Positions 317 to 6,377 of a stretch of DNA of 6,484 bases are shown here, one piece after another. The stretch is taken from IMG/VR virus record IMGVR_UViG_2734482598_000009. One strand, given 5' to 3'. A program made the position numbers and the translations under genes. Every line of letters begins with the position of its first letter. The stretch's first letter is position 1. Source of the stretch: a virus. Taxonomy: Duplodnaviria; Heunggongvirae; Uroviricota; Caudoviricetes. Below the pieces are notes generated by a model. That model made no database searches. It was not told the origin of the DNA and saw nothing but the letters and a program-made list of their open reading frames with translations.

Positions 317-484
317 ATGACCACTATTACCAAAGAACGTATTGAATTGTTCATTAAAAACCCGCTTGAAAACGGGCTTACCCGTGGTGAACAAATGGAA
401 CTGGCACGGATTGCGCTGGCATCGCTGGAAGCAGAGCCGGTTGTGTTCTGGTTTGAAAAATATCAAGAAGGGGCTACGGCATGA
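317..484 (+). CDS. Small hypothetical protein (55 aa), first gene of a translationally coupled trio
   Basis: Strong RBS AAGGAG at 305-310, ATG at 317. Stop TGA 482-484 overlaps the next start (ATGA). Not in the supplied ORF track because it is under 60 aa. Shares the motifs MTT.T.E and IAL(A/V)SL(E/A)AEP with the next ORF. Confidence 0.55.
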
Positions 485-825
485 CGACTTTTACCAGAGA
501 GCAGTTAATAGCTCACGCAGAGGAGACTATTGAAGCACAGAGACTGTGCATACCGGGCACAATCGACCATGACATCATCCGCACATATAAGATGGATATT
601 GCTGTTCTGGAAATCGCACTGGTATCGCTGGCAGCAGAGCCAGCCGGTAAATTGCATGAATACAAACCAGTGGGATATCAGCGTCTGGTCGATGAGTTAA
701 CCATGCTGGTAAAGCAGTTAACCTGGCAACTGAGGAAAGCGAAGCCAGACTGCAAATTACCGGATAAGGCGATGAGTTATCTGGAGCGGAACGGACTGAT
801 AAGCGTGGAGGATATTTTACGATGA
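481..825 (+). CDS. Hypothetical protein (114 aa), N-terminal region paralogous to the upstream 55-aa ORF
   Basis: ATG at 481 overlaps the upstream stop (ATGA). [10 protein letters not shown] here matches [10 protein letters not shown] in the 55-aa ORF. Stop TGA 823-825 overlaps the next ATG. Confidence 0.6.
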
Positions 826-905
826 CCTGGCCTGAAGCATTAACAACGGTAGGAATTGCGATGGCGGTGGCGCTGGTGGTGTATTCGATTTGCCGCTGGG
901 GATAA
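822..905 (+). CDS. Small hydrophobic peptide (27 aa, [27 protein letters not shown]), putative single-pass membrane peptide
   Basis: RBS GGAGGA at 806-811, ATG at 822 overlapping the upstream TGA (ATGA), stop TAA 903-905. One hydrophobic stretch of about 18 residues. Very short, so coding status is uncertain. Confidence 0.35.
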
Positions 906-2908: not shown

Positions 2909-3289
2909 ATGACCGAGCGCATAGAATTTGTTTTACCTTACCCGCCGACGGTGAACACTTACTGGCGTCGTCGTGGCAGCACATATTTTGTATCAAAAGC
3001 CGGGGAGCGTTATCGCCGGGCAGTGGCGCTTATTGTTCGCCAGCAGCGGCTGAAATTAAGCCTGTCCGGAAGGTTGGCAATAAAAATTATTGCAGAACCA
3101 CCGGATAAGCGCCGCCGTGACCTGGACAATATTCTGAAAGCGCCGCTGGATGCGCTGACGCATGCGGGGTTGCTAATGGACGATGAGCAGTTTGATGAAA
3201 TCAATATCGTTCGTGCTCAGCCAGTATCTGGTGGACGTCTGGGGGTGAAGATTTATCCCATAATGCTTGAAGGGCAGGTCAAAAAATGA
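2909..3289 (+). CDS. rusA: Crossover junction endodeoxyribonuclease RusA (Holliday junction resolvase)
   Basis: 126-aa product with PDKRRRDLDNILKAPLDALTHAGLLMDDEQF, matching the RusA catalytic core (PDRRRRDLDN...DALT.AG...DD). Start ATG 2909 directly follows the upstream TAA, and stop TGA 3287-3289 overlaps the next ATG. Confidence 0.9.
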   Translation: MTERIEFVLPYPPTVNTYWRRRGSTYFVSKAGERYRRAVALIVRQQRLKLSLSGRLAIKIIAEPPDKRRRDLDNILKAPLDALTHAGLLMDDEQFDEINIVRAQPVSGGRLGVKIYPIMLEGQVKK

Positions 3290-4005
3290 AACTGGAAGAT
3301 TTACCGNNNNNNNNNNNNNNNNNNNNNNNNNNNNNNNNNNNNNNNNNNNNNNNNNNNNNNNNNNNNNNNNNNNNNNNNNNNNNNNNNNNNNNNNNNNNNN
3401 NNNNNNNNNNNNNNNNNNNNNNNNNNNNNNNNNNNNNNNNNNNNNNNGCAGAAATAAAACCGGCAGTGATGCGTATTATGGCTTCGTATGCGTTTGAAGA
3501 TTATGCCCGTAGCGCGGCGAGCAAAAAACAGTGCCCCTGCTGTCACGGAAAAAAATTTATTGAAAGCGAGGTTTTTACAAACAAGATCCAGTATCCGGAT
3601 GGTAAGCCGCCGGTATGGGCAAAGTGTACGAAAGGTGTGTATCCGTCTTACTGGGAAGAATGGAAAAAAGTCAGGGAGGTGGTAAAAGTTGCCTGTCCGG
3701 AGTGTGGCGGAAAGGGTGAGGTTTCCACCGCCTGTAAGGATTGCCGTGGGCGTGGTGTCGCCATTCATCGTGAAGAGTCGGTAAAACGTGGTATGCCTGT
3801 TATCAGAGACTGCCAGCGTTGTGGTGGTCGTGGCTATGAAAGACTACCATCAACGGAGGCATTTAATGCTATATGCGAGGTGACAAACCAGATAACACGC
3901 GCGTCATGGGAAAAAACAGTTAAGAAATTTTATGATGCGCTGGTGACCCGGTTTGATATTGAAGAAGCATGGGCTGAGCGGCAGTTAAAAAAGGTAACTA
4001 GGTAA
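3286..4005 (+). CDS. Late antitermination protein Q (QuuQ-like) with four CxxCxGxG zinc-finger repeats; N-terminal part masked by Ns
   Basis: Lies between rusA and a PR'-like promoter. Contains CPCCHGKK, CPECGGKG, CKDCRGRG and CQRCGGRG. Frame is continuous across the 141-nt N-run (47 codons). Call is positional plus motif; 47 residues are unseen. Confidence 0.65.
   Translation: MKLEDLPXXXXXXXXXXXXXXXXXXXXXXXXXXXXXXXXXXXXXXXXXXXXXXXAEIKPAVMRIMASYAFEDYARSAASKKQCPCCHGKKFIESEVFTNKIQYPDGKPPVWAKCTKGVYPSYWEEWKKVREVVKVACPECGGKGEVSTACKDCRGRGVAIHREESVKRGMPVIRDCQRCGGRGYERLPSTEAFNAICEVTNQITRASWEKTVKKFYDALVTRFDIEEAWAERQLKKVTR
3307..3447. other. 141-nt run of N (masked or unsequenced) inside the Q gene
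   Basis: Literal N characters. Length is a multiple of 3 and the flanking frame is preserved. Confidence 0.95.
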
Positions 4006-4109: not shown

Positions 4110-4229
4110 ATGACTGAAATCGCGTCAGTACAGTAAACGCGCTGGTGGCGGTGAATACCTGTCTTTCAGCTTGCTGGCTTTTTCGACAAGAGTTATTGGT
4201 GTGTCACGTTAACCGGAAAAGGAAAAGAC

Positions 4230-4454: not shown

Positions 4455-4485
4455 GGCTGGTGGGTGTTAGGGGCACCCACCAGCC
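4455..4485. promoter_or_regulatory. Perfect 12-bp inverted repeat separated by 7 bp (GGCTGGTGGGTG-ttagggg-CACCCACCAGCC); candidate operator or RNA hairpin
   Basis: Exact complementarity of 4455-4466 with 4474-4485. No U-tract on either strand, so it is not a canonical terminator. Lies between the HTH ORF and the methyltransferase. Confidence 0.6.
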
Positions 4486-4577: not shown

Positions 4578-5636
4578 ATGCTTAATACTGTAAAAATATC
4601 CAGTTGTGAGTTAATCAACGCCGACTGCCTGGAATTTATCCGGTCGTTACCCGAAAATTCTGTTGACCTGATAGTCACGGACCCGCCGTACTTTAAAGTG
4701 AAGCCTGAGGGCTGGGATAACCAGTGGAAGGGCGACGATGATTACCTGAAGTGGCTGGACCAGTGTCTGGCGCAGTTCTGGCGGGTGCTGAAACCTGCCG
4801 GAAGTCTTTACCTGTTCTGTGGTCATCGCCTGGCATCTGATATCGAAATCATGATGCGTGAACGCTTCAGTGTGCTGAACCATATTATCTGGGCGAAGCC
4901 GTCCGGACGCTGGAACGGATGCAACAAGGAAAGCCTGCGGGCGTATTTCCCCGCCACAGAGCGCATTCTGTTCGCGGAACATTATCAGGGGCCGTATCGT
5001 CCGAAAGATGCCGGGTATGCGGCGAAGGGCAGTGCACTGAAACAGCATGTGATGGCCCCGCTGATTTCTTACTTTCGTGATGCGCGAGCTGCCCTGGGGA
5101 TAACGGCAAAACAGATTGCAGATGCCACAGGAAAGAAAAACATGGTGTCGCACTGGTTCAGTGCCGGTCAGTGGCAGTTGCCGAATGAAAGCGATTATCT
5201 GAAATTACAGGCGCTGTTTGCCCGGGTGGCAGAAGAGAAGCATCGGCGTGGTGAACTGGAAAAGCTCCACCACCAGCTGGTGGATACGTATACCTCACTG
5301 AACCGGCAGTATGCGGAGCTGCTGAGTGAATATAAACATCTGCGGCGGTATTTTGGCGTGACGGTGCAGGTGCCGTATACCGATGTGTGGACGCATAAAC
5401 CGGTGCAGTTCTATCCCGGGAAACATCCGTGCGAAAAACCGGCAGAAATGCTGCAGCAGATAATCAGCGCTAGCAGTCGTCCGGGTGACCTGATTGCAGA
5501 TTTTTTCATGGGGTTGGGTTCGACAGTGAAAGCGGCACTGGCGCTCGGGCGTCGTGCAATTGGCGTTGAGCTGGAGACTGAACGTTTTGAGCAGACGGTT
5601 CGGGAAGTACAGGATTTAGTCAGCCAGAACGGATGA
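4578..5636 (+). CDS. Orphan DNA methyltransferase, N6-adenine/N4-cytosine family, beta-class motif order
   Basis: 352 aa. Motif IV TDPPY near the N-terminus (DLIVTDPPYF) and motif I FxGxGS near the C-terminus (DFFMGLGST). No restriction endonuclease partner in the window. Weak RBS, and a 5-bp hairpin (4550-4568) lies just upstream of the start. Confidence 0.9.
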   Translation: MLNTVKISSCELINADCLEFIRSLPENSVDLIVTDPPYFKVKPEGWDNQWKGDDDYLKWLDQCLAQFWRVLKPAGSLYLFCGHRLASDIEIMMRERFSVLNHIIWAKPSGRWNGCNKESLRAYFPATERILFAEHYQGPYRPKDAGYAAKGSALKQHVMAPLISYFRDARAALGITAKQIADATGKKNMVSHWFSAGQWQLPNESDYLKLQALFARVAEEKHRRGELEKLHHQLVDTYTSLNRQYAELLSEYKHLRRYFGVTVQVPYTDVWTHKPVQFYPGKHPCEKPAEMLQQIISASSRPGDLIADFFMGLGSTVKAALALGRRAIGVELETERFEQTVREVQDLVSQNG

Positions 5637-5676: not shown

Positions 5677-5752
5677 GGCCCTTTAGCTCAGTGGTGAGAG
5701 CGAGCGACTCATAATCGCCAGGTCGCTGGTTCAAATCCAGCAAGGGCCACCA
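5677..5752 (+). tRNA. tRNA with CAU anticodon, ileX/ileZ-like (probably tRNA-Ile2 read via lysidine; tRNA-Met not excluded)
   Basis: Folds by hand into a cloverleaf: acceptor GGCCCTT/AAGGGCC, D-stem GCTC/GAGC, anticodon loop CTCATAA, T-arm GCTGG-TTCAAAT-CCAGC, encoded CCA. Close to the recalled E. coli ileX sequence. Confidence 0.85.
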
Positions 5753-5759
5753 TCACATA

Positions 5760-5795
5760 CCGCCATTAGCTCATCAGGAAAGAGCGCCAGCCTTC
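5760..5795 (+). tRNA. 5' part of a second tRNA running into the N-run; anticodon begins TC (consistent with tRNA-Arg UCU)
   Basis: Acceptor strand CCGCCAT, then TA, D-stem GCTC ... GAGC, anticodon stem CCAGC and loop starting CTTC before the Ns. Position 1 is C, which is unusual. Confidence 0.3.
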
Positions 5796-6045
5796 NNNNN
5801 NNNNNNNNNNNNNNNNNNNNNNNNNNNNNNNNNNNNNNNNNNNNNNNNNNNNNNNNNNNNNNNNNNNNNNNNNNNNNNNNNNNNNNNNNNNNNNNNNNNN
5901 NNNNNNNNNNNNNNNNNNNNNNNNNNNNNNNNNNNNNNNNNNNNNNNNNNNNNNNNNNNNNNNNNNNNNNNNNNNNNNNNNNNNNNNNNNNNNNNNNNNN
6001 NNNNNNNNNNNNNNNNNNNNNNNNNNNNNNNNNNNNNNNNNNNNN
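5796..6045. other. 250-nt run of N (masked or unsequenced), probably hiding the rest of the tRNA cluster
   Basis: Literal N characters, flanked by a tRNA 5' fragment and a possible tRNA 3' fragment. Confidence 0.95.
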
Positions 6046-6062
6046 GAATCCCCCTGTGCGGA
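6046..6062 (+). tRNA. Possible 3' end of a third tRNA (T-loop GAAT, T-stem CCCCC, acceptor TGTGCGG, discriminator A)
   Basis: GAATCCCCCTGTGCGGA right after the gap looks like a T-arm plus acceptor 3' strand. The implied 5' strand CCGCACA resembles the CCGCCAT start of the fragment at 5760. No encoded CCA. Confidence 0.2.
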
Positions 6063-6170
6063 GGGGCAATCAGCGAGTAGGTATATGGGATAATCGCGGA
6101 TTCAGGTGCTGGTACTGAATTCACCGGGAGGCACCCGGCATCATGCAATGGCACATAGCGCCACTCTCCA

Positions 6171-6191
6171 GCCCTCTCCGGAGGGGCTTTT
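6171..6191 (+). terminator. Terminator-like hairpin with T-run
   Basis: Stem CCCTC/GAGGG (6172-6176 / 6181-6185) with TCCG loop, then GC and TTTT (6188-6191). The U-tract is short and offset by 2 nt. Confidence 0.35.
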
Positions 6192-6377
6192 CTGTGCCGG
6201 ATACATCACAGTTTCTGGAACCTTAGGTACTACAGTATCAGTCAGGGTGCTATATTTTCAGATGTGATGAAAGCCTGTCAGCAGGCAGGGCGTATCGGAA
6301 ATGACCCAGTAGAGAAAACGTTGACTCAGATACCGGTGCTGAGTTACCGGGAAACCGGCATCACATGACCGCTATCC

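Follow-up and report, generated by a model that had tools for sequence, protein, structure and literature searches.

The window analysed here is the whole 6,484-nucleotide stretch of the virus record IMGVR_UViG_2734482598_000009 (Caudoviricetes), which is the early-right (nin-like) region of an Escherichia coli lambdoid prophage. It carries three small open reading frames (ORFs) in front of a hok/sok locus. We consider it likely that these are three separately shuffled accessory cassettes, which are co-transcribed and translationally coupled like their neighbours and in which short conserved motifs serve as in-frame crossover points; the common transcript presumably starts from the early promoter. 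According to the ORF list they are ORF1 (317-484, 55 aa), ORF2 (481-825, 114 aa) and ORF3 (822-905, 27 aa), all on the plus strand, as are the neighbouring features at 76-306 and 912-1358. They are chained by ATGA start/stop overlaps at 481-484 (ORF1/ORF2) and 822-825 (ORF2/ORF3), and each has its own Shine-Dalgarno sequence: AAGGAG at 305-310, 6 nt 5' of the ATG at 317; GAAGGGG at 467-473, 7 nt 5' of the ATG at 481; and GGAGGA at 807-812, within the end of ORF2 and 9 nt 5' of the ATG at 822. This gene structure had been reported in a preliminary description of the same DNA and is confirmed here in every detail. That description also took the tight coupling as a sign of a functional module, a view that we do not share, because ATGA overlaps are the rule throughout the operon: RusA (2909-3289) and the antiterminator gene Q (3286-4005) overlap in this way in the window, as do several neighbours in the related locus L001, so that coupling does not set the trio apart. 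The stop codon of the preceding gene (76-306) overlaps the Shine-Dalgarno sequence of ORF1. Promoter inspection and a terminator scan found no convincing internal promoter or terminator in 300-905, the sole terminator-like match being a weak 5-pair stem at 424-441, inside the motif of ORF1.

ORF1 is a chimera of two known genes. The preliminary description could assign none of the three ORFs to a known family; in fact, ORF1 begins as the N-terminus of EaA of phage P22. In tblastn searches of phage genomes, its residues 1-44 were 86% identical to the N-terminus of P22 EaA and shared over 90% identity with genes named 'EaA' in many P22-like, HK620-like and Stx phages, and its UniRef name is 'Eaa protein'. 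Profile searches with the three peptides gave a divided answer: ORF1, ORF2 and ORF3 had zero matches in Pfam, NCBIfam and PADLOC, whereas PHROG families were matched by both ORF1 and ORF2. Those of ORF1 are phrog_3323 and phrog_60, together with phrog_2118 (HNH), which covers residues 31-54. The EaA-type N-module of ORF1, delimited by the family alignment and the P22 EaA translation, spans residues 1-41 (317-439) and ends with the first copy of a shared motif (410-439, from the motif codon table). The remainder (440-484) is the last 14 codons and the stop codon of an HNH endonuclease gene. These 45 nt are identical to the 3' end of the HNH endonuclease gene of phage ArgO145, in which that gene precedes an ORF2 homologue; the homology between the window and the ArgO145 HNH gene begins exactly at GTTGTGTTC and is absent upstream of that point. 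Because the N-module matches EaA and the tail is the 3' end of an HNH gene, ORF1 is an EaA N-module joined in frame to an HNH tail directly after the shared motif. The tail holds the Shine-Dalgarno sequence of ORF2 and the ATGA overlap, and it was presumably retained because it carries this ribosome-binding site and restart. The same 17-residue tail ends three different N-module variants.

The C-terminus of the HNH protein, KALVRMGLVEMKSDP, which lies upstream of the 45-nt tail (window 410-484 compared with about 3400-3504 of L003, the ArgO145 locus), weakly resembles the second helix of the N-module, and residues 21-55 of ORF1 align to the HNH gene at 57% identity (tblastn). In view of this weak likeness, the join in ORF1 may be a recombination of diverged homologues and not a purely illegitimate event.

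ORF2 starts with a diverged copy of the same EaA N-module, as seen in the family alignment and profile. In a single BLASTP comparison, ORF1 and ORF2 share 33% identity (E=1e-05) over the N-terminal 41-54 residues or so only, and the paralogy is much clearer in the family alignment. Thus, the preliminary view of two paralogues, the second extended at the C-terminus, holds well. The N-module hairpin of ORF2, as delimited by the family alignment, is encoded at 481-642, with the second motif copy at 613-642, and a C-terminal helical module (about 670-825) follows after a short linker. ORF2 matches phrog_660 (8e-43) and several further PHROGs of unknown function. Its homologues are found in prophages and phages of Escherichia, Shigella and Salmonella, and the N-module occurs also in phages of Yersinia, Edwardsiella and Enterobacter (tblastn). 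The family layout is an MTTxTKE start, a variable stretch, the shared motif, zero or more variable domains and, often, a conserved C-module; the variable central domains include DUF551, a segment containing GWNACRAAMLQ and others. The family profile collected 1216 representatives of 50%-identity clusters at E<=0.001, with lengths of 50-395 aa. By this alignment, ORF2 reads as the minimal architecture of N-module plus C-module, with no central domain. The C-module has pN/pS of 0.24-0.29 at pS of 0.26-0.90 and is under purifying selection at the protein level. The possibility that it is a mere DNA-level linker was rejected, since synonymous divergence is high at a pN/pS of about 0.25.

An exact-pattern scan of genome contigs for the C-module returned 4 loci, a result that says little beyond Enterobacteriaceae. 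Two further records bear the name of another host. In Actinobacillus phage vB_Apl-pPE4 (PP818812.1, 12972-13186), the C-module and ORF3 are 89% and 96% identical to E. coli sequences at the amino acid level, and in a 1.8-kb contig of a metagenome-assembled genome (MAG) of Segatella copri (JAJXBQ010000377.1, L225) the C-module is 100% identical. Both records look like E. coli prophage DNA, by contamination, mis-binning or very recent transfer.

The cassettes assort independently of each other. We surveyed the neighbours of ORF2 in 83 loci in which it is at least 99% identical to that of the window; these and the other sampled loci are phylogenetically related, and the counts are not numbers of independent events. 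The gene upstream of ORF2 is ORF1-like in 59 of the 83 and an intact HNH endonuclease gene in 20; in the other 4, a different N-module variant of 61 aa stands there, again with the HNH-derived tail. Downstream, hok is present in 54 loci and absent in about 28, and all four combinations of upstream and downstream context were seen. The preliminary description had proposed tabulating the linkage of homologues to hok or to a conserved partner: linkage to hok proved frequent and not obligatory, and the ORF1-ORF2 pair, whose conservation had been named there as the point to be checked, is broken by replacement of ORF1 in 24 of the 83 loci.

Moreover, natural recombinants have lost the DNA between the two motif copies. 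In three loci (L222-L224), the 203 bp at about 421-623 of the window are absent, the flanks are identical to the window and the crossover falls within the shared ATCGCTGG. By this loss, ORF1 and ORF2 are fused in frame as a 101-aa hybrid (P0031). The collapsed hybrid stands in three contexts, one by xis/int (early-left) and two by hok, and a gene of the 76-306 type precedes it in all three loci. Thus, parent (HNH-ORF2), chimera (ORF1-ORF2) and collapsed hybrid are all extant in nature. The shared motif was found in 67 distinct DNA versions, in which the amino acids are near-invariant and synonymous change is free at I, A, E and P codons, and its core CTGGCATCGCTGGAAGCAGAG is conserved at synonymous sites too. 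This pattern is suggestive, coming as it does from related sequences, and would fit protein constraint and frequent DNA exchange alike.

The same blocks also turn up on both sides of the prophage early region. In L224 (ENA ERZ28589437, scaffold_5), a block of an 87-aa gene, the EaA-type hybrid and ORF3 adjoins DUF4222/xis/int in the early-left region, and elsewhere (L222/L223) it adjoins hok in the nin-like region; in phage 933W, ORF3 and hokW are in the left arm (L229). These double locations indicate that cassettes move between the two early operons.

ORF3 is a cassette of its own. We gathered its copies by a degenerate DNA pattern scan and tblastn, and sampled 199 of them; its DNA is present in 1634 of 5426 complete E. 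coli genomes (about 30%). Homology to other contexts starts exactly at the ORF3 ATG and ends 0-3 nt from its stop codon, and homology to contexts that lack hok breaks directly after the stop. At least six different kinds of gene end stand 5' of the 199 copies, and at least ten different sequences stand 3' of them. In O157:H7, for example, a DUF551 gene ending in ...LPEPPQEVNQ overlaps ORF3 by ATGA. ORF3 starts inside the stop codon of the upstream gene (ATGA-type overlap) in 197 of the 199 copies, and GGAGG is kept in the last codons of the upstream gene, 7-10 nt 5' of ORF3, across different upstream genes. Diverged ORF3 alleles were seen at 79-83% nucleotide identity; in four of them both end codons and the length of 27 codons are preserved, and the hydrophobic replacements are conservative. 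The pN/pS is 0.17-0.50, the variable sites by codon position are 10/10/19, and 17 distinct DNAs encode the major ORF3 peptide. A reading frame of constant length with conserved start and stop codons, a surplus of synonymous changes and a ribosome-binding site are features of a protein-coding gene, and together they argue for a real, independently assorting micro-protein gene under moderate purifying selection. Its hydropathy (19-residue window) reaches 2.16 and fits one transmembrane helix, so we predict a single-pass inner-membrane peptide. ORF3 has been largely overlooked, being unannotated in phage 933W (where an allele lies between L0139 and sokW/hokW), without annotation by PGAP in L001 and not in PHROGs. 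About 9 of 83 close copies are disrupted by a frameshift or nonsense mutation, and ORF3 is therefore dispensable.

Some ORF3 copies are inactivated. In L215 (GCA_049977665.1), just after position 2423, its start is ATA instead of ATG. In phage vB_EcoS-689R5 (L002, 3842-3952), codon 2 has lost 1 nt, for which reason the deposited annotation shows a frameshifted ORF of 36 aa in its place. An exact-sequence look-up clusters ORF3 peptides with DUF551 proteins of 121-185 aa that do not contain the ORF3 sequence; we take the grouping as a probable artefact for very short proteins and not as evidence of an ORF3-DUF551 fusion.

These observations suggest how the arrangement could have arisen. Recombination would have joined a P22-EaA-type N-hairpin module to the last 14 codons of an HNH gene, giving ORF1, whose tail would have been kept as the carrier of the ribosome-binding site and ATGA restart of ORF2. 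ORF2 would be the smallest architecture of a large mosaic family built of the N-module, variable parts such as DUF550 and DUF551, and the C-module. ORF3 would ride at the 3' end of gene arrays and be translated by coupling to whichever gene precedes it. The candidate crossover points are in frame and comprise the MTTx start segment, the shared motif, and the end of the C-module followed by ATGAC. Crossovers at such short conserved segments could produce the mosaics, including the duplication that gave ORF1 and ORF2 and its collapse.

Some of our results weigh against this reading of three separate cassettes. Intact ORF3 is found in about 74 of the 83 ORF2 loci, so that the ORF2-ORF3 pair is near invariant in close relatives, and the adjacency of ORF3 and hok recurs across several otherwise different contexts; both may reflect some functional linkage. 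ORF1-type truncated genes are intact in most loci and in three N-variants, and from this persistence ORF1 could be selected for itself and not be a mere remnant. The relatedness of the sampled loci counts on the same side. In addition, the matching PHROGs of the modules are all of 'unknown function', and the modules have no experimental or homology-based function. The true unit could also be any EaA-family gene plus ORF3, the membrane peptide anchoring or regulating the upstream helical protein or being regulated by it. The restart within the upstream stop codon and the GGAGG in the upstream last codons are in line with this, most of the upstream genes belong to the family and have the C-module or DUF551 at their end, and ORF2-ORF3 is kept while the flanking genes on both sides change. 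On the other hand, the domains at the ends of the upstream genes (C-module, DUF551, ...LKNIEQEVNR and others) are unrelated to one another, and this speaks against ORF3 having a specific protein partner. In ea-type arrays, the next gene after a family member is often one more member and not ORF3. Moreover, the sample was chosen by ORF3 or ORF2 sequence, and the linkage of the two is thereby overestimated. We hold such a pair to be unlikely. A similar weight, which leaves it rather doubtful, is given to the idea that ORF1 is a selected micro-protein consisting of the N-module only, which would form hetero-oligomers with ORF2, or with further N-module proteins from its own or a co-resident prophage, and modulate its partners. 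Nearly every locus with an ORF1-type gene has it intact, three N-module variants share the tail, the Shine-Dalgarno sequence AAGGAG is strong, and the N-module is a confidently predicted helical hairpin, a fold commonly pairing into four-helix bundles. However, loci of the HNH type and those with the collapsed 101-aa hybrid do without ORF1, and AlphaFold2 on a natural ORF1-ORF2 fusion (P0001), taken as a proxy for the complex, gave no packed hairpin pair, in a model whose mean pLDDT of only 57 makes it uninformative.

The preliminary description favoured one dedicated module for toxin-antitoxin, anti-defence or exclusion functions, in which ORF3 would be the effector and ORF1 and ORF2 its paralogous regulators. 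We judge this highly improbable, even though the trio is small and tightly ATGA-coupled, its hydrophobic 27-mer has the size of a type I toxin, it occupies the relBE slot beside hok, and the whole trio is present at a coverage of at least 80% in 324 complete E. coli genomes. A single module of this kind is not supported, because the partners of ORF2 are not conserved as a pair (59/20/4 of 83, with HNH or the other variant in place of ORF1 in 24), the ORF1 tail is a remnant of an HNH gene, ORF1 and ORF2 are fused in natural recombinants, ORF3 also follows DUF551 and other unrelated genes, hundreds of other architectures contain these modules, and ATGA coupling is general in this operon. A type II toxin-antitoxin system would be expected to show known domains; there was no Pfam, NCBIfam or PADLOC match for the trio, and the predicted fold, which consists of helices throughout, had no significant match in structure searches. 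For anti-phage defence, PADLOC-DB gave 0 families at E<=1 for the three ORFs and two neighbours. As for a stand-alone type I toxin, ORF3 has a start coupled to the upstream gene and no promoter-like site in 300-905, Pfam finds no Hok/Gef similarity in it, and the only antisense RNA that Rfam finds is sok, which belongs to hok. It might also be asked whether the ORF3 frame is open by chance only and lies in a conserved element that is non-coding, such as an upstream portion of the hok control sequences or a linker for recombination. It is short and uncatalogued, some close copies are broken, one has lost its ATG, and it often adjoins the hok promoter. We nevertheless think this improbable: about 59% of the sampled copies have no hok leader downstream, for which reason a role as part of that leader was rejected, and the diverged alleles with conservative replacements, the many DNAs for one peptide, the third-position excess, the low pN/pS, the GGAGG kept in different upstream genes and the mosaic breakpoints exactly at both ends of ORF3 all speak for a translated gene. 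Three separately shuffled cassettes remain the preferred reading, within which a single cassette, ORF3 above all, might still act in defence or exclusion.

With regard to known systems, lambdoid phages evolve as modular mosaics with junctions at gene and domain boundaries, as described in the Susskind-Botstein modules and in comparisons of HK97, HK022 and HK620. The breakpoints follow this pattern, falling at the start and stop of ORF3, where the N-module motif ends, and at ATGA junctions. On the other hand, several of the crossovers described here lie inside coding sequence at short peptide motifs, unlike the classic junctions, and result in in-frame domain swaps and in the deletion of a tandem repeat. 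Among named proteins, P22 EaA and the mosaic Ea22 family stand nearest to ORF1 and ORF2. P22 EaA (317 aa) is composed of the N-module, DUF550 (MazG-like) and DUF551, according to phage annotations and our reading of the sequence, and it shares with ORF1 and ORF2 the status of a non-essential accessory early gene of lambdoid phages. Unlike EaA, however, ORF1 stops after the N-module with the HNH tail, ORF2 has a different C-module and no Pfam domain, and both are in the nin-like early-right region whereas EaA is in the early-left 'ea' region. The downstream EaA domains DUF550 and DUF551 had no Pfam match in ORF1 or ORF2, and DUF551 was found in 2 of 35 aligned relatives.

The Ea22 protein of lambda and Stx phages is a mosaic of an N-terminal segment, a coiled coil and interchangeable C-terminal domains (PMC10834534). 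Ea22 and Ead_Ea22-like proteins (PF13935) follow the same design principle as the present family, with helical or coiled-coil parts and portable C-terminal domains including DUF551, and their genes sit in the same gene arrays; the N-terminal module differs. The PF13935 profile had no match at E<=1 for ORF1 or ORF2 and none at E<=0.01 among about 35 relatives. The C-module of ORF2 also ends the Ead/Ea22-like Sb32 of Salmonella phage ST64B; the next gene there starts with the N-module and overlaps the Sb32 gene by ATGA. Since the EaA N-module is shared while DUF550, DUF551 and the Ead_Ea22 profile are unmatched, the minimal architectures of ORF1 and ORF2 are new, but the mosaic accessory genes of lambdoid phages to which they belong are a known kind.

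The two toxin-antitoxin systems of the same neighbourhood are informative by contrast. Like Hok of the hok/sok loci (hokD of Qin, hokW of 933W), its immediate 3' neighbour, ORF3 encodes a very small hydrophobic peptide; unlike hok/sok, it is without Hok/Gef similarity, a detected antisense family or its own promoter, and is coupled to the upstream gene. The relBE genes of the Qin prophage have the same map position as the trio, upstream of hok and the DUF968 gene, whereas the trio shows no sequence, domain or architectural similarity to them and no conserved two-gene partnership.

The structural models give some hints about ORF2. AlphaFold2 predicts helices at residues 6-26 and 30-51 (the N-module hairpin) with pLDDT above 90, a flexible linker, and then C-module helices at 64-87, 95-103 and 109-113. 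A Foldseek search of this model against BFVD and the Protein Data Bank (PDB) gave no match at E<=0.001, the helical hairpin being too generic a fold, and a PDB sequence search with ORF2 gave no match. The C-module profile, when searched against the PDB, matched by its first (long) helix designed antiparallel coiled coils only (E=8e-06); we take these matches as a hint of coiled-coil character and not of homology. This likeness points to an oligomeric helical protein, and ORF2, which is predicted to be all-helical, probably oligomerises through coiled coils. By analogy with Ea22 only, its role may be that of a scaffold or adaptor and not of an enzyme. Our literature searches found no functional studies of EaA or of these modules.

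As for the meaning of these results, a false lead is removed, in that the relBE slot would hold no new toxin-antitoxin or defence trio. The locus offers a clean sequence-level case of lambdoid accessory genes rebuilt by in-frame recombination at short conserved motifs. Current concepts are unchanged and the value is modest: the sequences are already common in databases as 'hypothetical protein' or 'Eaa', and what is modestly new is the series of parent, chimera and collapse and the conserved, unannotated ORF3. It is possible that ORF3 represents a widespread, essentially uncatalogued inner-membrane micro-protein family of lambdoid and Stx phages that is always translated by restart, and such a peptide might serve in phage DNA exclusion, in modulation of a host membrane protein or in cooperation with hok. 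Many prophages of pathogenic E. coli, Stx phages among them, carry ORF3, which offers small-protein studies a cheap and well-defined target. A joint proposal, that the ORF3 family has such a possible membrane role and that the EaA-type motifs are kept partly as in-frame crossover sites, is put forward only tentatively; if it is true, the motifs would in effect equip the accessory genes of both early operons with a domain-shuffling system of their own.

Regarding the surroundings of the trio, the gene order in the window is ORF1-ORF2-ORF3-hok/mok-DUF968-RusA-Q. The top full-length match of the window is E. coli TUM10008, in which the replication genes are followed by a run of small genes, hokD, a DUF968 gene, RusA, antiterminator Q, a DNA methyltransferase and tRNAs. 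The order in the K-12 Qin prophage is relB-relE-hokD-rem-ydfU (DUF968)-ydfT (Q), and the two agree in placing the trio in the relBE slot upstream of hok, as the preliminary description had proposed. The early-operon gene 5' of the trio (76-306) encodes 76 aa from the ATG there and 87 aa as called in related loci; it matches phrog_1714 (5e-37, unknown function) and is not a member of the EaA-type family. The locus at 912-1358 is a complete hok/sok system, in which mok overlaps hok and both a sok RNA region and a terminator are present, and it is independent of the trio. It comprises mok (1060-1272) and hok (1117-1272), whose product matches Pfam HOK_GEF (3e-23), with the mRNA start near 947; Rfam finds sok at 947-1122 (112 bits, gathering score 59), and the terminator scan places a terminator at 1341-1358. 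By analogy with hok of R1, the promoter may be TTTGCG-17 nt-TAGAAT at 912-940.

Further downstream, masked bases (N, translated as X) break the region of the Q antiterminator gene at about 3307-3470 and the stretch after a tRNA at about 5755-6045, and annotation is incomplete in both places. The tRNA (5677-5749, 72.5 bits) and a match to the small RNA (sRNA) family STnc100 (6017-6199, 69.8 bits, gathering score 47) lie 3' of the methyltransferase gene; at the equivalent place, tRNA-Ile, tRNA-Arg and tRNA-Arg are found in the related locus L001. Finally, the Chi octamer GCTGGTGG occurs 10 times in the 6.5 kb, where shuffled sequences give 0.24 copies on average and 2 at most; its density in E. 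coli is roughly one per 4.5-5 kb. Six copies are on the plus strand (872-879, 2017-2024, 2075-2082, 4141-4148, 4456-4463 and 5276-5283) and four on the minus strand (2481-2488, 2533-2540, 4477-4484 and 5270-5277). This enrichment of the prophage early region is strong and could matter for RecBCD protection or recombination. One copy is inside ORF3 and is absent from the diverged ORF3 alleles, and the copies at 5270-5283 form a back-to-back palindromic pair, CCACCAGCTGGTGG.

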